A stretch of DNA of 64,000 bases, from the NCBI GenBank assembly GCA_016792845.1, contig JAEUKH010000018.1:10984-74983 (forward strand). Reading direction: 5' to 3'. Both the position numbers and the translations under genes were made by a program. The stretch is from Myxococcales bacterium (lineage in GTDB: Bacteria > Myxococcota_A > Polyangia > Polyangiales > Ga0077539). Of this stretch, positions 29,136 through 37,702 are shown one piece after another. The notes under the pieces were generated by a model. The model worked only from the letters and a program-made list of their open reading frames with translations. It ran no database searches and was not told the origin of the DNA. Position 1 is the stretch's first letter. Every line of letters starts with the position of its first letter.

Positions 29136-29852
29136 TCAGAGCGGCGCGATCTTCTCCCTGATCGCGTCGAGAAAGTCCTTGAGGCCGTTCGCTTGACCTC
29201 GCGCACGCAAGCGTTCGAGCGGAGCCCTTTCGAGAACTTCCTCTCTCCGCGTCTTCGAGAGCCTCAGCTCATCGAGCGCGCGCTTCGCATCGTTCGGGTC
29301 GGTCACCTTGGCTGAGGTCAGCCGCTCACTCTGCTCACACGGGTCGAAGCCGAGGCGCTTGCGAAGCGCTGCGAAGTTCGCCGTCTCGGTCTCCCCCTCG
29401 GGGCTGTATCCCGCAAGCACCCAAGCCTCGTGCTCTGGCTGCGCGATGCCGAAGGCTAGGCGATCTTTTTCGTGACGCTTCCACGCCGAGATGCCCGCTG
29501 CGATGCCCTCGGCCCAAGCTGAGGCGTTGCGGTCACCGTCATGCACGAACACCACGCAGCAGTGCTCCTTGCGTCGTTGCCTCTGAATCGCACGCGCGAG
29601 CCGGAGCACCTGGCGCTGGACCGGACTCCCAGACTCCCCGTGCACAGGCGGAACTGTGAGCGGGGCCGCAAGCTTGAGGATCTCAGTCCACGAGACGTAC
29701 CCGGCGCTGCCGTCTGGGTGCCACCACGTCACAACGCTTTCGGTGATGCCACGAACCCAGTCGTGCTCTTCTTCGATCACCCGGGTCGTCAACGCCCTGA
29801 GGTCGGCGGCATCGGCCCCTCCTTCGCAGACCAGCACGAGGGTCCAACTCAC
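29136..29852 (-). CDS. small Toprim-like protein (DUF4276-like; conserved LVCEGG Glu and VHDGD DxD), partner of upstream ABC-type ATPase
   Basis: I place the start at GTG 29852-29850, which overlaps the TGA of the upstream ATPase as GTGA. The alternative ATG at 29933 would overlap the ATPase by 84 nt. Motifs: VSWTLVLVCEGGAD..., ...CVVFVHDGD..., EAWVLAGY. Confidence 0.5.
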   Translation of the reverse strand: MSWTLVLVCEGGADAADLRALTTRVIEEEHDWVRGITESVVTWWHPDGSAGYVSWTEILKLAAPLTVPPVHGESGSPVQRQVLRLARAIQRQRRKEHCCVVFVHDGDRNASAWAEGIAAGISAWKRHEKDRLAFGIAQPEHEAWVLAGYSPEGETETANFAALRKRLGFDPCEQSERLTSAKVTDPNDAKRALDELRLSKTRREEVLERAPLERLRARGQANGLKDFLDAIREKIAPL

Positions 29853-31018
29853 GGATCGCCCCCCCCTCGCTGGGCCACCCAGCCTTCGAGTTGCGCCATC
29901 CAGAGTTCGCCGGGCTTCACCATGTCGCGCCACAACTCAAACTCGGGATGCGCGTCGAGACCGGCGCACCGCACGGCCCCCTTGGGGTCGAGGGTGGTGA
30001 CCCGCACCTCGTCGAAGCCCACCGCATCGAGCAGGTACGGAGAGTGCGTGGTGGCCAGGATCTGCAAGCCCGGGCGCACCACGCGTTGAAACTCCTTGAG
30101 TTGGGCCACCAGATCGATCTGGGCCTTCGGGTGCAGGCCTCGGTCTAGCTCGTCGAGCATCAGCACGCGCACATGCTCGTGCGCCAGCACCGCGGTCGCC
30201 ACCGCGAGCACCAGGGTCGTGCCCTCGCTCGCCGCCGAAAGCGGAATGTTCGACCCGCTGTCAGTGTCGACCACCACCCGCTGGCCCCACACGCTCTCGT
30301 CGCGGCGCTGCGACATCGCGTGTCCGTTCACCACGATCTCGTCGGCACGCACCCGGCTCACCCGCGCCCGCTCGACCCGCACACCCCGCACCGACGGAAT
30401 CACCCGCCGCACCATCCCCACGATGCCCTCGCGCGTCTCCGGCCTGCGCGCCCAGAGGTCACCCAACACCGACCCCAGCCCCTCGCCGTTGGGCCCCAGG
30501 CGCGGCACCGCCTCGTCTGAGTAGCTGGGTCGCGCCAGGGTCGGAGCGTCAAACGCATGCAACACCCCCTCGCCGAGCCACGCGCGAAGCTCAGCCCACG
30601 CGGGTTCGCGCGACTTCGCGAGGCCGCGCGCTTCCACCTCGCCGATCGACTCTTCGATCTGGCCAACGACCTTCGCAGACGCCAAGACCGGGCCGTCACC
30701 CAGCACGCGCCGCTGCACCGAGCCGACCTCACCCGGGCCGACCCGAAGCGTCGCCAGCAATAACTTCTGCGCGACCGCCTCAAGGCTGATCGTCGTCGCG
30801 CCGACGGCGTCACGCGAGAGCACCGACACGTCGTCACTCCACGCCGCGTCAACGCCCTCCGAGAGCGACCCCGCGAGCGCCTGGAGCACCAGCCCCACGC
30901 CCGCCAGGAGGCTCGACTTGCCCGCCCCGTTGGGCCCCACGAACACCGTAAACGGCGCCAGATCGACCGACACCGACCGCAGCGCTCGAAAGTTCTCGAA
31001 GCTCACCCGCTGAATCAT
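29849..31018 (-). CDS. ABC-type (AAA_21/OLD-like) ATPase
   Basis: Start ATG 31018-31016 (MIQRVSFENFRALRSVSVDLAPFTVFVGPNGAGKSSLL: Walker A). C-terminal signature-like LSAASEGT, Walker B VRVLMLDELD, H-loop ILATTHSP. The 204-codon N-terminal extension of the six-frame ORF (to 31630) is antisense to a real + strand gene and is rejected. Confidence 0.65.
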   Translation of the reverse strand: MIQRVSFENFRALRSVSVDLAPFTVFVGPNGAGKSSLLAGVGLVLQALAGSLSEGVDAAWSDDVSVLSRDAVGATTISLEAVAQKLLLATLRVGPGEVGSVQRRVLGDGPVLASAKVVGQIEESIGEVEARGLAKSREPAWAELRAWLGEGVLHAFDAPTLARPSYSDEAVPRLGPNGEGLGSVLGDLWARRPETREGIVGMVRRVIPSVRGVRVERARVSRVRADEIVVNGHAMSQRRDESVWGQRVVVDTDSGSNIPLSAASEGTTLVLAVATAVLAHEHVRVLMLDELDRGLHPKAQIDLVAQLKEFQRVVRPGLQILATTHSPYLLDAVGFDEVRVTTLDPKGAVRCAGLDAHPEFELWRDMVKPGELWMAQLEGWVAQRGGGDP

Positions 31019-31045: not shown

Positions 31046-31798
31046 GTGCGGCGTGTCACCCGCGCGGACCCGCCCTGGAGTACCCTTCGCCAGGTGACGC
31101 CTCCCCGACGCCTCGCCGCCGCGCTCGCGCTCGCCACCCTGGCCCTGGGTCTGCTCTGGCTCCGTCGCCGCCCCAGCGACCCCGAGACCGCCGCGGGCGC
31201 CCCGCAGCCCCGCCGAGGCACCTACGAGGCTCAGGAGCGCCCGAACCTGGGTGAGACCGAGCGACGCCCCTCGGAGCCCCCGCGCGCCCCCGCACGCACC
31301 CTCCACGACCGGGCGCAGCGCGACGCCTTGCGGGCGGCCCTGGTGACCCTCTGGCAGCGCGAGGCGGCCGCAGCACGCGCCGAGCAAGCCCGCGATGCGG
31401 CCACCGACGACGACGCGGGGGTGCGCTACCCCGCCATGCCCACCCGCGACGGAGGCGTCGACCCTGAGTACCTCCGGAGCCGCATCCGAGAAGACTTTCT
31501 GCCCATGGCCGGAGCTTGCTACGACCAGCTCCTCGCGCGGCGCCCGGGGGTCGAGGGCCGGGTGGTGATCGACTTCACCCTCGTGGGCGATTCGCGGGTC
31601 GGCGGCGTCGTCGACGAGGCCTCGCTGCACTATGGCGACGCAGGGGTTGCCGACGCGGGGCTCATGGAGTCGGGCTTCGAGACCTGCCTCCGCGAGTCGA
31701 TGCTCGCCATGGCCTTCGCCCCTCCCCCCGGGAGCGGTCAGCTCAGGGTTCGCTACCCGCTGAACCTCCGCCCCGACGCTCCCGACGCGGGCCGCTGA
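31046..31798 (+). CDS. membrane-anchored protein with C-terminal TonB-C/AgmX-like domain
   Basis: N-terminal signal-anchor (RRLAAALALATLALGLLWL). Charged/coiled middle region. C-terminus GRVVIDFTLVGDSRVGGVVDEAS...FETCLRESMLAMAFAPPP...LRVRYPLNL fits the TonB C-terminal-like fold. A second protein at 40750-41865 carries a similar domain. The exact start is uncertain. Confidence 0.45.
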   Translation: MRRVTRADPPWSTLRQVTPPRRLAAALALATLALGLLWLRRRPSDPETAAGAPQPRRGTYEAQERPNLGETERRPSEPPRAPARTLHDRAQRDALRAALVTLWQREAAAARAEQARDAATDDDAGVRYPAMPTRDGGVDPEYLRSRIREDFLPMAGACYDQLLARRPGVEGRVVIDFTLVGDSRVGGVVDEASLHYGDAGVADAGLMESGFETCLRESMLAMAFAPPPGSGQLRVRYPLNLRPDAPDAGR

Positions 31799-31820: not shown

Positions 31821-32040
31821 GCGTATCTCCAGATTCGTCAGGGCGTATCTCCAGATACGTCAGGGCGTATCTCCAGATACGTCAGGGCGTATCTCCAGAT
31901 GCCTCGGGACGTGTCTCCAGATGCCTCGGGCGTATCTCCAGATGCCTCGGGCGTATCTCCAGATGCCTCGGGACGTATCTCCAGATGCCTCGGGACGTAT
32001 CTCCAGATGCCTCGGGACGTGTCTCCAGATACGTCGCGGG
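31821..32040. repeat. array of ten tandem 21-22 bp repeats (consensus CGTATCTCCAGAT[A/G]C[G/C]TC[A/G]GG[A]), each containing inverted hexamers GTATCT-CC-AGATAC
   Basis: Read directly from the sequence. There are 3 A-type units (…AGATACGTCAGGG) and 6 B-type units (…AGATGCCTCGGG[A]), plus a degenerate terminal unit. The array is intergenic between convergent 3' ends (31798 and 32043). Confidence 0.9.
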
Positions 32041-32042
32041 GC

Positions 32043-32597
32043 TCAGCCCTTGGCGGGCTTCTTCTCGCGCTTGGCCTTGCGGCCGAAGCCGCCGAAGTAG
32101 GCGAGCGGCTCTTGGAGCGCGCGGCGCAGCTCGGGGTTCGATTTCGCGAGCACCGAGAGGTCGTTGTAGACCCGCAGCGTGGGTTTGCGGCTCTTGGCGC
32201 CGTAGAAGAGGGCCGAGTCGCTGAGCCGCGACACCATCTGAACGCTCACCGCGTCGACCTGGGCTGCGGCCTCGGCGAAGCGCTCGTGGAGCGTAAGCCA
32301 GTCGCGCAGGATCTCGGCTTCGAAGCGCTGGGGGTCGACCCCGCCGTCGCCGTGGCCTGCGACCAGGGCCGGGTACTTCTCGGCAGCGTCGAGCACGCCC
32401 CGAAGCACCTCGCTCTCGCCCACCCGCAGCTTGCCGAGCGACACCTTGCGCGCGTCGGGGCTCAGCACCGTGACGTGCGGCGCGATCAACGCCGCGGCTT
32501 CTTCGACCAGGGCCACCGCCCGGGTCAGATCGGCCAGCATCGCAGCCCGCCTGGCCGACCCGTCGACCTTGTTCGCCTTCTTCGAGACCTTTGCCAT
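32043..32597 (-). CDS. hypothetical protein (Lys-rich termini), last gene of a Clp-like ATPase operon
   Basis: 184-aa ORF with GC3-rich codon usage consistent with coding. No family is recognisable from the sequence. Confidence 0.45.
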   Translation of the reverse strand: MAKVSKKANKVDGSARRAAMLADLTRAVALVEEAAALIAPHVTVLSPDARKVSLGKLRVGESEVLRGVLDAAEKYPALVAGHGDGGVDPQRFEAEILRDWLTLHERFAEAAAQVDAVSVQMVSRLSDSALFYGAKSRKPTLRVYNDLSVLAKSNPELRRALQEPLAYFGGFGRKAKREKKPAKG

Positions 32598-33412: not shown

Positions 33413-35719
33413 TCAGGCCCTCGGCCCCTCGGCTGCGCCGAGATCGATCACGCCGTCACCCCCGACGGTCACCCCGCGGTCACGCAGGGCGGGCTCCCGC
33501 GCGAGGAGCGCCGCCACCGGAGACACCACCCGGTCTTCGAGCACCCGCTTGAGCGGACGGGCCCCGCGGGTCGGGTGAAAGCCCTCTTCGGCGAGCTGGA
33601 GCCGCAGCGCGGGGGTCACCCTCAGGCTGAGGTTTCGCCGCACGAGGCCCGAGCGTTGGGCGGCCTTCGAGAGCTCGAGGTCGACGATCCGCAGCACGTC
33701 GTCGGGGCTGAGGTTGCGGAAGCTCACCACATGGTCGATGCGGTTGAAGAACTCAGGGCGAAAGTGCTGGCGCACGGCGCGGTCGAGCCCCGCGGCGGTG
33801 GCGTCGGCGTCGAAGCCCACGGGCCGCGTCTCGGTGACGCCGAGGTTCGAGGTCATCACCACCAGGGTCATGCGAAAGTCGACGACGCTGCCGAAGCTGT
33901 CGGTCATGCGCCCCTCGCCGAGCACCCCGAGGAGGAGGTCGAACACCTCAGGGTGGGCCTTCTCGACCTCGTCGAGGAGCACCAACGAGAGCGGCTGCTC
34001 GCGCACCCTTTGGGCGAGGCTGGTGACCCCGCTCCCCACCTCAAGGAGCCGCTGCGCCGACCCGGCGAACATGTACTCGCTCATGTCGAGCCGCACCATG
34101 CGCGCCTCGTTGCCGAACATGTACCGCGCGAGGGTGCGCGCGAGCTCGGTCTTGCCGACCCCCGTGGGGCCGACAAAGAGCAGCGTGCCGATGGGGCGCT
34201 CGGGGTCATCGAGGCCCGCTTTGAAGCGCGCGAGCACCCGGGCCGCCACCGCGCAGGCGTGGTCTTGACCGATCACGGCCCCCGAGAGCCGCGCGGCGAG
34301 GGCCGTCGCGCCCACCCGCGTCTCGTCGGCGATGAGCTCGACGGGCAGCCCGGTGTTGCGCGCGAACAGCTCTGACACGTCGCGGGGGTAGAGAGTCTTG
34401 GGCGCACGCACGCTCTGCCCGGGCGCGGGCGCGCCTTCTCCCGCGGCGAGCCAGTCGACAAAGCGCATCGCCTTCCCGGGGAAGGCCACGTCGCGCTGGA
34501 AGGTCGCGAGGTGATGAATGAGCCGCTTCATCGCCCCGGCGTGCAAGCTGAGATGCGGCGCCTTGCGCTGCTGGTAGCTCGCGAGGAGCACGGGCAGCTG
34601 GTACGCCGGCGGCGGCGTGAGCCTGAGCACCACCAAGGGCTCGACCAGCGAGGCGAAGCGACGGCGGCAGTGCTCGTACTCGGCCTCGGTGCACTCGGCG
34701 ATCACCGAGACCTCGCCGTCGCGGGCCGCGGGCAAGAGGATCTCTCCGAGCGAGGCGCCGTCGCTCTGCGGCTGGAGGAGCTTCACCAGCGCGTCGAGGT
34801 AGAGGTAATCGCCCTCGTGGCTGAGCTCGCTTAGCAGGTCGAAGCAGCGCTCTTGCCACATCCCGACGTAGGTCATGCCCGCGATGAGCCGCGTGGCGCT
34901 GGTGGCCCAAAGCCGCGGGGTGTGAGCCTCGCGGCCCTCGCGACGGCGGGCGAGGAGGCTCCGCGCGAGGCGCCGCACGAAGGTCGTCTTGCCGACGCCG
35001 CTCGGGCCCACCAAGAGCACCGACGGCGGCGGGCTGCGCGAGAGGAGCCCCAGCGCGTTGGTGAAGGCGTCGCTCTCGCCCACGACCCCCGGGAGCTTGT
35101 TGCGCGCCGCGCGCTCGACCCACTCGTCGGCGACCTGTGACAGCACCGGGAAGCGCCGCGCGGCGTCGAGGTCGTGGGCCTCGTCTTCGGTGGTGCCGGT
35201 GCCCCGCATCGACCAGCTCCTGACGTACTCATCGCCGACGTAGCGGAAGTCGTAGAGGGTCGAGGCCTGCTCGCCGAGGAGCGCCGACGACACCGCCGAT
35301 TGCAGCACCTCGGCCGCGATGTCGAGGCTCTCGATGACGAACCACCACCCGAAGCGCGGCAGCATCACGCGGTAGCCGCCCTTGCGCAGCGCGCACCACG
35401 CGTAGCTCATGCGAAGCGGGATCTCTTTGGCCCCGATCACCATGCGCTTGTTCGACACGCTCTGCGGAAACACCCGCAGCGACACCTGGCGGGTCTGGAA
35501 GTCTTCCTCCCACAGGTACCGCTCGACGTCGTCGTCGCCCACCGCGAGGGCTTGTTGCAGCGCCACTTCGAGCTGCCGCAGCACGTCGTCTTCGCTGGTG
35601 CCCACCGCGCTCGGCGGCGGGCGATCGAAGAACGCATCGAACTGCCGAATGAGCGTGCCGGTCAACAAACCCCTGGCGTGCGGCACGAAGTAAACGCGAA
35701 ACGAACGCTTGTCACCCAT
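33413..35719 (-). CDS. ClpA/ClpB-like double-ring AAA+ ATPase with a non-canonical 200-aa N-terminal domain
   Basis: 768 aa. D1 Walker A is LLVGPSGVGKTT. D2 has FVGPTGVGKTELARTLA, Walker B LVLLDEVEKAHPEVFDLLLGVL, and sensor-2 GARPLKRVLE. The N-terminal 200 aa have no Clp_N features. The next gene starts 3 nt after its stop. Confidence 0.7.
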   Translation of the reverse strand: MGDKRSFRVYFVPHARGLLTGTLIRQFDAFFDRPPPSAVGTSEDDVLRQLEVALQQALAVGDDDVERYLWEEDFQTRQVSLRVFPQSVSNKRMVIGAKEIPLRMSYAWCALRKGGYRVMLPRFGWWFVIESLDIAAEVLQSAVSSALLGEQASTLYDFRYVGDEYVRSWSMRGTGTTEDEAHDLDAARRFPVLSQVADEWVERAARNKLPGVVGESDAFTNALGLLSRSPPPSVLLVGPSGVGKTTFVRRLARSLLARRREGREAHTPRLWATSATRLIAGMTYVGMWQERCFDLLSELSHEGDYLYLDALVKLLQPQSDGASLGEILLPAARDGEVSVIAECTEAEYEHCRRRFASLVEPLVVLRLTPPPAYQLPVLLASYQQRKAPHLSLHAGAMKRLIHHLATFQRDVAFPGKAMRFVDWLAAGEGAPAPGQSVRAPKTLYPRDVSELFARNTGLPVELIADETRVGATALAARLSGAVIGQDHACAVAARVLARFKAGLDDPERPIGTLLFVGPTGVGKTELARTLARYMFGNEARMVRLDMSEYMFAGSAQRLLEVGSGVTSLAQRVREQPLSLVLLDEVEKAHPEVFDLLLGVLGEGRMTDSFGSVVDFRMTLVVMTSNLGVTETRPVGFDADATAAGLDRAVRQHFRPEFFNRIDHVVSFRNLSPDDVLRIVDLELSKAAQRSGLVRRNLSLRVTPALRLQLAEEGFHPTRGARPLKRVLEDRVVSPVAALLAREPALRDRGVTVGGDGVIDLGAAEGPRA

Positions 35720-35896: not shown

Positions 35897-37702
35897 TCAG
35901 GGCGACGAGCCCACGTTCTGGACGCACTCGATGAGGGCGCTGGCGCCGTTGTCGATGCTGGCCCCTTCGGTGAACGAGATGCGCTGGAGGCAGCTCGGCG
36001 CCGACGGGTCGACGGTGGTGTCGTAGTAGAAGCCCGCGCCCGCGGTGGGGCGGCCGCCGAGGGGGGCCGGCACCTGCTCGACGAGGCACTGCTCGTTGCC
36101 GTTGGCGTCGCGACCCGCAGGGCGACGGCCGCGGGCGGGGGTGCAGCGGTCGGCCGCGCGGAGGTTCGACGGCAAGGTCTCACGCACCACGCAGTTGACG
36201 CGCACCGGGGTGGTCGAGCCCATCGAGACGCAGCCCGCCGGAGTGCCCATGCCCGTACAGATCGGCGGCGTGGTCTGAAGCGGACGCGGCAGACACCGAC
36301 CCGAGAGCTGGTTCTGGATGCGCTCGACGATCTGCTGGAGGGCCGTCGAGTAGTCGCTGCGGCAGATCGAGCTGACGGTGCCGTTCTGGTAGCCCACGGC
36401 GAAGCGGCGGGCGACCTCGACGATGCGGCGCGAGGGCCACGCGAAGTACTGCGAGGTGGTGTCGCAGGCCGGGCGCGAGGGGTCGTACGAGGTGCCCTCG
36501 CGGCGACAGGCCGGCACCACGCGCATCGCGCAGGCGGGATCCATGTTGCGCTGGCGCATCGAGACGGGGCCCTCGGTGCTCATGCCCGTGAAGCCCTCAG
36601 AGCCGTTCGGGTTGGCGCCGAGCAGGGTGCCCCAGTCGATCTGGGTGGTGCCGCCCGAGGTGGTGCTCGGGAGGTTGATCGGCACGCCCAAGATGCCTGC
36701 GAAGATCACGAGGTTCGGCCGCCCAGGCTTGAGCGAGAGGAAGCCGCGCGTCGGGCGCATCGGGTCGATGTACCGGTTCAAGTTCCACGTGGGGTCTTGC
36801 CGCGTGCCGGGCTCGTACATGTAGAACCTGAGGTTCAGGTCGTTCGAGGCCCAGTCGCCCGAGCTGCTGTCGAAGACGCCGAGGGCGTCGCCGCGAGGCG
36901 CCCGGCAGTCGCCGTCGGGGTCGCCCTGCTCTTGGTAACGGCAGTCGCGCACCGAGCCGTCTTCTTCGTCAGACACGAGCACGATGGCGAGCACCGAGTC
37001 GTTGCGCACGAAGCCCGCGTTCGGGTCGGTGTTGCCGGCCTGCGCGCGGGGGTTGCGCACCACGAGGGCGCGGTACGCCGACTCGAGCTGCTGCTCAAGG
37101 CCGCAGCCGCCCGTCGACAAGAAGGCGTTGCACACGAAGTCTTCACGAAACGCCGCCGCGTCAGTCATCTGCGCGTCGAAGGTCAGGAAGTTCGGGTACT
37201 GGTTCAGGTTCATCGTGCAGCGGGCGGGGCGGATGCCCGCGGGCGCCGTCGTCCACGGTTGGTGCATGCGGATCGCGAGGCCGTTGCGCACGGGGTTCAA
37301 CAACCCGTCGTCGCCCGAATCGCTGTTCACACACGACGGCACCGTCGAGCCCGGAGTGCCGAGGTCTGAGCTGATCACACCGACGTGCATCGAGCGCACG
37401 GGCGTGTAGCGCGGCCGCATGGTGGCAGGGTCGACCGGCGGCGACACCAGCTGCGAGATCAGCACGTCGAACTGACGCGCGAGCTGCGCCTGGTTGTCAC
37501 GCATCGAGTTCGAGTTGTCGATTTCGAAGAGAATGTCGACCGAATCGACCGCGTTGTTGACCACCGGAAGGCGGACACCCGACTGCAGCTTCGGCTCAGG
37601 CGCCGACACCGGACGATCAAGACAGCCCGCCGTGAGCGCGCCCAACACGCCCACCGCCATCACGCTGCCAACCCAGAAGCGGAAGCCAACCCGCTGCGAC
37701 AT
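35897..37702 (-). CDS. secreted lipoprotein with von Willebrand factor A-like (MIDAS) domain
   Basis: Signal plus lipobox VLGALTAGC. DxSxS MIDAS motif in DILFEIDNSNSMRDNQ. Cys-rich C-terminal half. Confidence 0.6.
   Translation of the reverse strand: MSQRVGFRFWVGSVMAVGVLGALTAGCLDRPVSAPEPKLQSGVRLPVVNNAVDSVDILFEIDNSNSMRDNQAQLARQFDVLISQLVSPPVDPATMRPRYTPVRSMHVGVISSDLGTPGSTVPSCVNSDSGDDGLLNPVRNGLAIRMHQPWTTAPAGIRPARCTMNLNQYPNFLTFDAQMTDAAAFREDFVCNAFLSTGGCGLEQQLESAYRALVVRNPRAQAGNTDPNAGFVRNDSVLAIVLVSDEEDGSVRDCRYQEQGDPDGDCRAPRGDALGVFDSSSGDWASNDLNLRFYMYEPGTRQDPTWNLNRYIDPMRPTRGFLSLKPGRPNLVIFAGILGVPINLPSTTSGGTTQIDWGTLLGANPNGSEGFTGMSTEGPVSMRQRNMDPACAMRVVPACRREGTSYDPSRPACDTTSQYFAWPSRRIVEVARRFAVGYQNGTVSSICRSDYSTALQQIVERIQNQLSGRCLPRPLQTTPPICTGMGTPAGCVSMGSTTPVRVNCVVRETLPSNLRAADRCTPARGRRPAGRDANGNEQCLVEQVPAPLGGRPTAGAGFYYDTTVDPSAPSCLQRISFTEGASIDNGASALIECVQNVGSSP

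Follow-up and report, generated by a model that had tools for sequence, protein, structure and literature searches.

A translationally coupled ABC-type ATPase and Toprim-like protein form a candidate accessory defence cassette in a Myxococcales genome

The pairing of an ABC ATPase with a TOPRIM protein is a well-established design in defence, found in OLD, Gabija, PARIS and AbiL, and MADS3-4 is listed with them (PMC11464382). [quoted passage not shown] According to the authors of the embedding study, many RM- or Hma-embedded systems also occur in a non-embedded form. Mad4, which accompanies the AAA ATPase Mad3 in the methylation-associated defence system (MADS), is a DUF4276/Toprim protein, and both DUF4276 and RloB are members of the Toprim superfamily (PMC12065111). 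PARIS, which consists of the ABC ATPase AriA and the DUF4435 Toprim protein AriB, has been proposed as a 'class 4' OLD-like system. The catalytic set of BpOLD is E400/E404/D455/D457/E508/K562, in which E508 is a ligand of metal B and K562 is catalytic (PMC6755086). Here, we compared with these systems a two-gene locus found in a 64,000-nucleotide stretch of DNA from a Myxococcales bacterium (contig JAEUKH010000018.1 of assembly GCA_016792845.1, positions 10,984 to 74,983), which is called the window below.

Gene A (29849..31018) encodes a 389-aa ABC-type ATPase of the AAA_15/AAA_21 kind, similar to HEC-01A, and gene B (29136..29852) encodes a 238-aa stand-alone Toprim-like protein of an unannotated family. 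Both genes lie on the minus strand of the window, as do all of their features described below. Gene A starts with ATG at 31018 and ends with TGA at 29851-29849, and gene B starts with GTG at 29852-29850 and ends with TGA at 29138-29136. The stop codon of A and the start codon of B have in common the four nucleotides GTGA (29849..29852). The initial annotation had described a pair of genes with this overlap, and both points were borne out, although the strand was not stated there. A G-rich run, GAGGGGGGGG (29859..29868), lies within the 3' end of A and stops 6 nt before the GTG of B, where it may function as a Shine-Dalgarno sequence. The mechanically predicted ORFs reach further upstream (593 aa for A and 265 aa for B); the start codons adopted here are those at which the homologues begin in alignments A1 and A4. 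In other assemblies, an independent gene caller likewise predicted genes of 389 and 238 aa that overlap by 4 nt, and an exact protein look-up found the A protein deposited as MBL8601409.1, 'AAA family ATPase'. More than 120 homologues of A were obtained at E <= 1e-5, and a profile search for B gave about 1,160 cluster representatives at 50% identity, 229 of them at E <= 1e-30. From these counts, A and B are real genes and not chance ORFs.

The A protein belongs to the ABC-type ATPases, as had been proposed. In searches with the two Pfam models suggested for this purpose, it passed the thresholds of both AAA_21 (PF13304; 89.2 bits against a cut-off of 27, E = 7e-25) and AAA_15 (PF13175; 70.3 bits against 32.1, E = 3e-19). 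Its best matches were the ATPases of ABC-ATPase/Toprim systems. The top PADLOC model was HEC-01A (PDLC04178; 5.2e-34), for which residues 2-373 of A aligned with positions 9-375 of the 399 in the model. This was followed by mad3 (1.4e-23), AriA (2e-23 and 3e-20, both partial) and AbiLi (9e-18), and the models PDC-M07A and PtuA also matched A, ranking after HEC-01A. In NCBIfam, antiphage_MADS3 (NF047739) was the best match; it scored 99 bits, and its cut-off is 420. The four ATPase motifs quoted in the initial annotation were all present and were invariant or nearly so among 33 homologues. In the Walker A motif GPNGAGKSS (residues 28-36; 30911..30937), G28, N30, G33 and K34 are invariant. The ABC signature-like SEGT (residues 264-267; 30218..30229) has E265, G266 and T267 invariant and S264 conserved in at least 90% of the sequences. 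In the Walker B/D-loop sequence VLMLDELD (residues 285-292; 30143..30166), D289 is invariant, and D/E at position 290 and D292 are conserved at 90% or more. H325 and S326 of the H-loop TTHSP (residues 323-327; 30038..30052) are also invariant. Between Walker A and the signature, an insert at about residues 80-148 (30574..30782) is poorly conserved and has no majority residue in the consensus.

The closest solved relative of A by sequence was TsOLD (6p74), which matched only the N-terminal 48 residues (1.3e-9). This N-terminal P-loop region is also common to RecF, RecN and SMC (SMC_N, 9e-8; TIGR00611, 1e-8), and the pair has housekeeping genes of the chromosome as neighbours and a native GC content. 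It could therefore be asked whether A and B serve DNA maintenance, in RecF/SbcCD-like repair or in the cell cycle. Such a non-defence role is reported for Cran1, an archaeal ATPase of the OLD family (PMC12796447). We consider such a role highly improbable for this pair. The RecF and SMC matches covered only about 45 N-terminal residues and were below the family cut-offs, whereas the full-length matches of A were the ATPases of defence systems. Furthermore, as described below, nearly identical genomes lack the pair or carry it in a degraded form, and it is without synteny across loci. A pattern scan of 185,579 species genomes with alignment A1 found at least five loci, a number that is limited by the pattern and is an undercount, and this low count also argues against a housekeeping function.

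In the structure model, the B protein consists of an alpha/beta domain at the N terminus (residues 1-150) and a helical domain at the C terminus (153-238). The glutamate of LVCEGG and the aspartates of VHDGD, to which the initial annotation had drawn attention, were conserved at 90% or more, or invariant, in 83 diverse homologues. E10 lies at the end of the first strand (residues 3-8) and is followed four residues later by D14 (29811..29825), each conserved in at least 90% of the sequences. The DxD motif, D105-G-D107 (29532..29540), is placed at the end of the strand 97-105, with D105 invariant and D107 conserved at 90% or more. E140-H-E142 in the sequence PEHEAW (29427..29435) opens the helix that follows the last core strand, and E142 and W144 are invariant. 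K190 in DAKR (29283..29285), located in the helical domain, is invariant in the 83 sequences. E10, D14, D105, D107, E142 and K190 follow the order of the BpOLD set and occupy comparable structural positions. From this agreement, E10 and D14 are putative equivalents of E400 and E404, E142 would correspond to E508, and K190 to K562. The conserved set of B appears to resemble a two-metal Toprim site of the OLD type, an equivalence that is read from order and position.

No curated threshold was reached by B in Pfam, NCBIfam or PHROGs, its family has no model in these three collections, and the PADLOC matches were only marginal. Window B was matched by HEC-01B at best with 1.7e-4 (19.7 bits, residues 69-150 only), by PDC-M31B with 1.1e-4 and by PDC-M25B with 7e-4. 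Among the 83 family members, weak matches were given by PDC-M25B for 19 (best, 4e-7), by HEC-01B for 14 and by RloB for three (best, 4e-4), as well as by PDC-M31B. DUF4276 (PF14103; cut-off, 30.2 bits) did not match window B and matched two of the 83 members (best, 6.7e-4); it was the only Pfam model found with the family consensus from the diverse alignment A2 (12.6 bits, E = 0.17). When the B profile A2 was compared with an alignment of genuine DUF4276 proteins (A5) by hhalign, the probability was 78% (P = 1.8e-5, 123 columns), and it fell to 48% (P = 1.8e-4) with a deeper DUF4276 alignment (A6). In both hhalign alignments the E, DxD and ExEAW motifs were in register, and the E142 motif of B was aligned with EExEAW of DUF4276. 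Reciprocal HMM matches between the two families amounted to only 7-21 bits. The proposal of a Toprim-like, DUF4276-like protein therefore stands in its first part, with the conserved E...DxD motifs and weak matches to Toprim models only; any kinship with DUF4276 is distant, and B is not a member of the Pfam family.

Comparison of the B profile (83 homologues) with PDB sequences gave only spurious matches, and hhalign of the profile with two single OLD proteins, E. coli YbjD and P2 Old, gave no signal, so that a direct sequence link between B and the Toprim domain of OLD is not demonstrated. Foldseek with the B model found nothing at E <= 0.001 in the PDB or among the BFVD viral structures. The top structural match, outside this limit in the PDB search, was PH0156/2p62. 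The lack of a significant Foldseek match and of a curated Toprim model passed by B would also be expected if B were not a nuclease, and if its alpha/beta domain bound a nucleotide or signal or regulated A, the likeness to Toprim being convergent. We regard this as very unlikely. The conserved acidic cluster and the lysine are at the positions expected for a two-metal Toprim site, and the weak profile matches (DUF4276, RloB, HEC-01B, PDC-M25B and PDC-M31B) are all to Toprim-superfamily or small-partner models, with no other fold among them.

No ATPase-fused relative was present among the top 150 representatives of the B family, which were 127-308 aa long. Nine loci of the family had a named organism, and these were mostly Myxococcota-type MAGs. 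B directly followed A in each of the eight independent loci for which DNA was available (L001-L005, L010/L011, L012 and L013), and the homologous pairs overlap by 4 nt or 8 nt where genes were called. In a contig of GCA_041447075.1, a 245-aa gene that may be a B homologue overlaps the A gene by 4 nt. None of the window neighbours flank the pair in the related loci examined. Some copies of the pair adjoin further genes of a defence type. These are a Type II MTase in L010 and HEPN/NTase and DUF6602 genes in L012, and GCA_041447075.1 has another pair of an ATPase and a small ORF at this place. A pair from Verrucomicrobia (L014) was considered as a bridge between families and was rejected; it has a HEC-01A-like ATPase, with a 213-aa partner that matched neither the B profile nor Pfam or PADLOC models.

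The pair is an accessory cassette that is polymorphic for presence and absence. In four samples (L006-L009), sister contigs of the window lack a 703-nt segment (29149..29851) that contains nearly all of B, and the flanks of this deletion are about 99-99.6% identical between L006 and the window by blastn. No clean microhomology was found at the junction. In L006, an unrelated segment of 73 nt stands in place of the poorly conserved insert of A (30574..30782) and disrupts the frame. The intact A-B allele is present in three other samples, and a sample from the same SRR series is among those with this allele. In addition, B is interrupted in three MAG loci, by an in-frame stop in L002 and by frameshifts in L003 and L013, which could be due to assembly error or decay.

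The repeated loss or interruption of B (L006-L009, L002, L003 and L013) fits a costly or toxic gene, and the tight overlapping unit occurs in unrelated contexts. These observations would suit a selfish, toxin-antitoxin-like addiction cassette or a module directed against plasmids or other MGEs, in which B is a toxic nuclease restrained by A and phages have no part. The result of the HEC-01 test (10.1101/2024.01.29.577857) also favours a non-phage role, and AAA_21 is named in Pfam as 'putative AbiEii toxin, Type IV TA system'. We nevertheless consider this explanation unlikely. An ABC ATPase of 389 aa would be an unusually elaborate antitoxin, and every experimentally characterised ABC-ATPase/Toprim system reviewed acts in phage defence. 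Moreover, tblastn of A and B against the plasmids of PLSDB gave no match, which argues that plasmid stabilisation is not the usual niche of the pair.

In the window, the pair stands alone among housekeeping and efflux genes, as described in the initial annotation. An RND efflux operon, a sigma-54 activator and PBP1A are located upstream, and hypothetical genes and a Clp-like ATPase downstream, with shikimate and secretin genes farther out. The GC content does not deviate. No integrase or transposase Pfam domain was detected in the larger window ORFs scanned, and the window contains no tRNA gene. Rfam gave no match around the pair or the repeat array described below, and scanning for sigma-70 promoters and terminators gave nothing useful in this DNA of 70% GC. 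Of the other MADS genes, the only trace nearby was an unspecific AAA+ hit of the Clp-like gene to mad8. A tandem array of 22 nt in 9.6 copies (31821-32030) is real, as had been noted; it is not directly next to the pair, however, since a 250-aa ORF stands between the array and A. We rejected this array as a part of the module, because of the intervening ORF and because it is unique to this spot and not CRISPR-like.

The pair in the window is not embedded in a defence island or in an RM or Hma system, is not accompanied by mobility genes and has no MTase or helicase partner. HEC-01-type pairs are located between hsdS and hsdR in L015 and between an MTase and a helicase in L017, and adjoin SNF2 or MTase genes in L021 and L022. 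Together with the Type II MTase next to the L010 homologue and the degraded sister allele, this could indicate that the window pair is left over, as an orphan or in decay, from a module that functions only as an accessory within an RM, Hma or MADS system, and is inactive here. Such a history seems quite improbable to us. The ORFs in the window are intact and keep all of the catalytic residues, and the B family is large and under strong constraint, as seen from the 229 representatives given above. Among the related loci with annotated neighbours (L010, L012, L013 and GCA_041447075.1), an MTase is next to the pair only in L010, and many embedded-type systems are reported in non-embedded form.

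[quoted passage not shown] The 'uncharacterised variant of this defence family' of the initial annotation is a fair description. The defence role, the complex, the trigger, and the activity and target of the nuclease are inferred; the working model, in which the nuclease is sequestered on an ATPase scaffold and later set free, is that of PARIS. A would be an ATPase of the sensor or regulator kind known from OLD-like defence systems, and B a stand-alone Toprim nuclease of a family distantly related to DUF4276, whose Toprim core and helical domain would resemble the catalytic region of OLD. Together, the two domains of B would contribute the lysine K190 and two sites for metal, one of E10/D105/D107 and the other of D14/E142. 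A shared mRNA may give the two proteins in a constant ratio, and they would form a complex in which the ATPase silences the nuclease. A cue derived from a phage or MGE, possibly sensed by the variable insert of A together with ATP binding or hydrolysis, would release or activate B. The nuclease would then cut nucleic acid, either DNA, as OLD and Gabija do, or tRNA, as AriB of PARIS does, and the invader or the infected cell would be stopped. We further propose, tentatively and with slightly less than even confidence, that the B family represents a separate branch of split OLD-like immunity, in which a nuclease with the full OLD-style two-metal-plus-lysine region is controlled in trans by a compact HEC-01A-like ATPase. 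The trigger or target of such a system could be unlike those of PARIS, Gabija and OLD.

An active pair would extend the ABC-ATPase/Toprim (OLD-like) defence systems by a branch at the family level, and would do so in Myxococcota, a phylum in which defence against phages has been little studied. With 389 and 238 aa, the pair offers a compact split system for studying the gating of a Toprim nuclease in trans by an ABC ATPase, a question that was opened by PARIS. The models of Pfam, NCBIfam and PADLOC fail on about 1000 clusters of the B-type Toprim partner, and the defence-finding tools of today would probably miss systems of this family; an HMM of alignment A2 would fill this gap. Since nearly identical genomes carry either the intact or the deleted allele in nature, they lend themselves to a comparison of fitness or phage susceptibility.

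The architecture of the pair and its likely logic are already known from described systems, and nothing is overturned by this locus. [quoted passage not shown] However, P2 Old and TsOLD (class 1) and GajA and BpOLD (class 2) are single polypeptides, whereas the window pair is split into two ORFs. Class 2 goes with a UvrD-like helicase and class 3 with a retron RT/ncRNA, whereas class 1 has the ATPase and Toprim_OLD in a single chain. Neither a GajB-like helicase nor a retron RT or ncRNA is near the pair, and with no helicase or RT neighbour, no Toprim_OLD match and no Rfam match, the pair falls outside OLD classes 1-3. It resembles AbiL and RloA-RloB in that A matches AbiLi and some members of the B family weakly match RloB, but window B matches neither AbiLii nor RloB, and the pair is outside a type I RM locus. 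PARIS also has the ATPase and the Toprim effector on separate genes, A partially matches the AriA models, and the top structural match of B, PH0156/2p62, is the reported match of a lactococcal AriB. On the other hand, B has no DUF4435 or AriB match, and AriA and AriB are about 53-55 kDa and 35 kDa, as compared with the 389 and 238 aa found here; with only a partial AriA match in addition, the pair is not a PARIS system. A resembles MADS in its matches to mad3 and antiphage_MADS3, but B has no mad4-type match and no MTase or other mad gene adjoins the pair, and with these genes missing and the NCBIfam score far below its cut-off, it is not a MADS (Mad1-8) system. HEC-01, the closest of the described candidates, is likewise a two-gene unit of an ATPase overlapping with a following small Toprim protein, and both have a predicted metal-binding Toprim site comparable to that of BpOLD. 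In contrast to HEC-01, B exceeds the DUF4276 partners that we fetched (186-228 aa) by about 30-40 residues, a stretch of some 45 residues from strand 1 to the strand of DxD is largely unmatched in the hhalign alignment, and this alignment stops before the C-terminal helical domain of B; in addition, the window pair lies free of any Hma or RM system.

The locus consists of two genes on the minus strand. Gene A, encoding the ABC-type ATPase, runs from ATG at 31018 to TGA at 29851-29849 (389 aa), and gene B, encoding the small Toprim-like partner, runs from GTG at 29852-29850 to TGA at 29138-29136 (238 aa), with an overlap of the tetranucleotide GTGA. A Shine-Dalgarno-like G-rich run is located at 29859-29868 on the same strand, its 3' edge 6 nt from the start of B. 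The mechanical ORFs reach farther upstream (593 aa for A and 265 aa for B), and the start codons of both genes were set by homologue alignments. In other assemblies of the same locus, an independent gene caller gave a 389-aa and a 238-aa gene with a 4-nt overlap. The gene structure of the initial annotation, with these two sizes and the GTGA overlap, was confirmed by the ORFs and by the gene caller. Protein A is present in the database as MBL8601409.1, 'AAA family ATPase'.

The Pfam scan of A detected AAA_21 (89 bits) and AAA_15 (70 bits), both above threshold. The matches to SMC_N, RecF and ABC transporter models were below the cut-offs and were confined to the N-terminal P-loop, and we regard a housekeeping repair function of the pair as very improbable. 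Among the PADLOC models, HEC-01A was the top match and covered the full length (residues 2-373; 5e-34), followed by mad3 (1e-23), AriA (2e-23), PDC-M07A (about 1e-22), PtuA (about 1e-19) and AbiLi (9e-18). The NCBIfam MADS3 equivalog has a cut-off of 420 bits, and A scored 99. Across 33 homologues, the Walker A residues G28, N30, G33 and K34, the SEGT signature (residues 264-267), D289, D/E290 and D292 of the Walker B/D-loop, and H325 of the H-loop were conserved, as expected from the ABC-type motifs read at first, while the stretch from Walker A to the signature motif showed little conservation. The nearest solved relative of A by sequence was the class 1 OLD nuclease 6p74, over 48 residues only.

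Protein B had no match in Pfam, NCBIfam or PHROGs, and its PADLOC matches were partial and marginal (PDC-M31B, 1e-4; HEC-01B, 1.7e-4; PDC-M25B, 7e-4). A word-indexed search with B yielded 8 relatives. When 1.84 billion cluster representatives were searched with a profile built from them, 1,160 proteins matched at E <= 1e-3, of which 901 reached E <= 1e-10 and 229 reached E <= 1e-30. Among the best 150 of the 1,160 proteins, most measured about 230-270 aa, a few were shorter fragments and no protein was longer than 308 aa; therefore, none of these 150 is fused to an ATPase. In an alignment of 83 family members, D105, E142, W144, P171, K190 and L224 were invariant, and the positions conserved in at least 90% included E10, D14 and D107. 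The Toprim-type residues that had been recognized in the LVCEGG and VHDGD motifs of B are thus maintained in the family. In the AF2 model of B (pLDDT 82, pTM 0.83), E10 immediately follows strand 1, a central strand ends in D105-x-D107, E140/E142 open the helix after the last core strand, and K190 sits in the C-terminal helical domain. In the catalytic region of the OLD nuclease BpOLD, metal A is assigned to E400, D455 and D457, metal B to E404 and E508, and K562 is contributed by the helical domain (PMC6755086). The conserved residues of B match this set in order and placement in the model, from which we infer that they are equivalent. We consider it quite improbable that B is not a nuclease.

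Foldseek searches of PDB and BFVD with B gave no significant match, and hhalign of the B family with single OLD proteins gave no signal. A DUF4276 reference set was built from genuine 'DUF4276 family protein' genes adjoining AAA ATPases on plasmids, and its profile recovered thousands of PF14103 proteins. When the B family was aligned with 8 sequences of this kind, hhalign reported 78% probability (P 1.8e-5, 123 columns), and with 34 sequences 48% (P 1.8e-4). Both runs placed the motifs in the same register (VCE/LVE, RDxD/DxD and PEREAW/EExEAW; B family/DUF4276). Reciprocal HMM-sequence matches reached 7-21 bits, and the B-family consensus scored 12.6 bits against Pfam DUF4276, for which the cut-off is 30.2. 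PDC-M25B was matched by 19 of the 83 members (best 4e-7) and HEC-01B by 14; the other models matched were PDC-M31B, RloB and DUF4276, and nothing outside these five. DUF4276 and RloB are placed in the Toprim superfamily (PMC12065111), and HEC-01B is described as a TOPRIM protein with a BpOLD-like metal site (bioRxiv 10.1101/2024.01.29.577857). We conclude that B is most probably a Toprim-type protein of a distinct, unannotated family. The DUF4276-like label given initially holds as a distant likeness and not as membership.

A B homologue was found directly downstream of the A homologue in all eight independent loci represented by DNA sequence, comprising two Polyangiales, one Myxococcaceae, one alphaproteobacterial, one deltaproteobacterial and one Polyangiaceae MAG and two metagenome contigs. 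By gene calls only, a 245-aa gene overlaps the A homologue by 4 nt in the GCA_041447075.1 contig. Wherever both genes of a pair had been called, the overlap was 4 or 8 nt. None of the window's neighbour genes was found beside the pair at other loci. The neighbourhood in GCA_041447075.1 contains a second, divergent AAA_21 + 253-aa pair; one pair (407 aa + 253 aa) stands back to back with the other (359 aa + 245 aa), on opposite strands, and within each the two genes overlap by 4 nt. The arrangement points to duplicated or stacked cassettes of this type. In a Verrucomicrobia MAG (L014, 8001-9619), the gene of an HEC-01A-like ATPase (5e-38) shares 4 nt with that of a 213-aa partner without a match to the B-family profile, Pfam or PADLOC models; this partner may represent yet another unmodelled family. 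A Type II MTase neighbours the pair in one related locus (L010), and a HEPN/NTase protein and DUF6602 in another (L012). Genuine AAA ATPase + DUF4276 pairs on four plasmids (L015, L017, L021, L022) lay embedded between hsdS and hsdR or between MTase and DEAD-box helicase genes, or stood beside SNF2 or MTase genes. The published 'embedded' pattern of HEC-01 matches these plasmid pairs, whereas the window pair is solitary. The contrast would fit an orphan accessory of RM-type systems, a reading of the window pair that we find rather unlikely.

Intact and degraded alleles of the pair occur in nature. Over about 8 kb, sister contigs from four samples (L006-L009) share about 99-99.6% nucleotide identity with the window. 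A stretch of 703 nt (window 29149-29851), almost exactly gene B, is missing from these contigs, and in their gene A 209 nt of the variable insert (window 30574-30782) are replaced by 73 unrelated nt; therefore, the reading frame is broken. The intact allele (L026-L028) was found in one further sample of the SRR series to which these contigs belong, and also in two runs unrelated to it. At three related loci, B homologues are cut next to an A that looks intact, by an in-frame stop (L002, 8337-8339) or by frameshifts or insertion (L003, 8285-8545; L013, 8951-9783), and these interruptions may be errors in the assembly of the MAGs or may mean that B is inactivated repeatedly. Overall, the pair has the behaviour of a unit that is mobile and can be dispensed with. 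No tRNA gene or GC anomaly was found at the pair in the window, and the window ORFs scanned contained neither integrase nor transposase domains. On one side of the pair lies an operon for RND efflux and on the other lie hypothetical genes, in agreement with the solitary setting first described. The unit might instead be a TA-like or anti-MGE cassette, which we regard as unlikely.

At 31821-32030, a 22-nt unit with the consensus GCGTATCTCCAGATGCCTCGGG is repeated 9.6 times in a tandem array, the only one in the window and without an Rfam match. Several units carry a 7-8 bp inverted repeat, CGTATCT-CC-AGATACG, and have the look of binding sites in series or of hairpins. ORF 31046-31798(+) and ORF 32043-32597(-) converge on the array with their 3' ends; the array is real, as the initial annotation had it, and is separated from A by the former ORF rather than adjoining the pair. 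All Logan contigs of the locus start inside the array, which points to an assembly break. Farther along, 33413-35719 (-) encodes a 768-aa ClpB-like double AAA+ protein (AAA_2, ClpB_D2-small), whose N-terminal 200 residues have no assigned domain. Its PADLOC matches to PDC-M37B (7e-26) and DolB (1e-22) may be plain generic AAA+ similarity. The adjoining 601-aa ORF (35897-37702, -) has no Pfam or PADLOC match.

The evidence best supports reading the pair as an OLD-like system of two components, with ATPase and Toprim effector on separate polypeptides, an arrangement also found in PARIS, MADS3-4, AbiL and HEC-01 (PMC11464382; bioRxiv 10.1101/2024.01.29.577857). The coupled genes would produce an A-B complex in which A restrains B. 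The variable insert of A may sense an invader-derived cue, an ATP-dependent change would release or activate B, and B would then cleave DNA or tRNA by a two-metal mechanism. A defence role is somewhat probable by analogy with these systems. In E. coli, no protection was obtained with HEC-01, which is the closest candidate described so far (bioRxiv 10.1101/2024.01.29.577857), and therefore the uncertainty about this role is real.

The value of the pair lies in a family of Toprim partners that comprises about a thousand clusters and has no model, in the OLD-like catalytic constellation predicted for a stand-alone protein, and in natural intact and deleted alleles open to experiment. A is recognisably HEC-01A-like, and the pair would work like HEC-01, MADS3-4 and PARIS if the analogy holds. 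B did not qualify as a member of DUF4276, DUF4435/AriB of PARIS or Toprim_OLD, nor A as MADS3, nor the pair as a fused OLD protein. Therefore, this is a variant at the family level of a system kind already known, and the initial proposal of an uncharacterised variant of the ATPase/Toprim defence family was essentially right. The family-level variant is new and the kind of system is not; the split ATPase/Toprim architecture and its probable logic are already established, and no result obtained here conflicts with current understanding.
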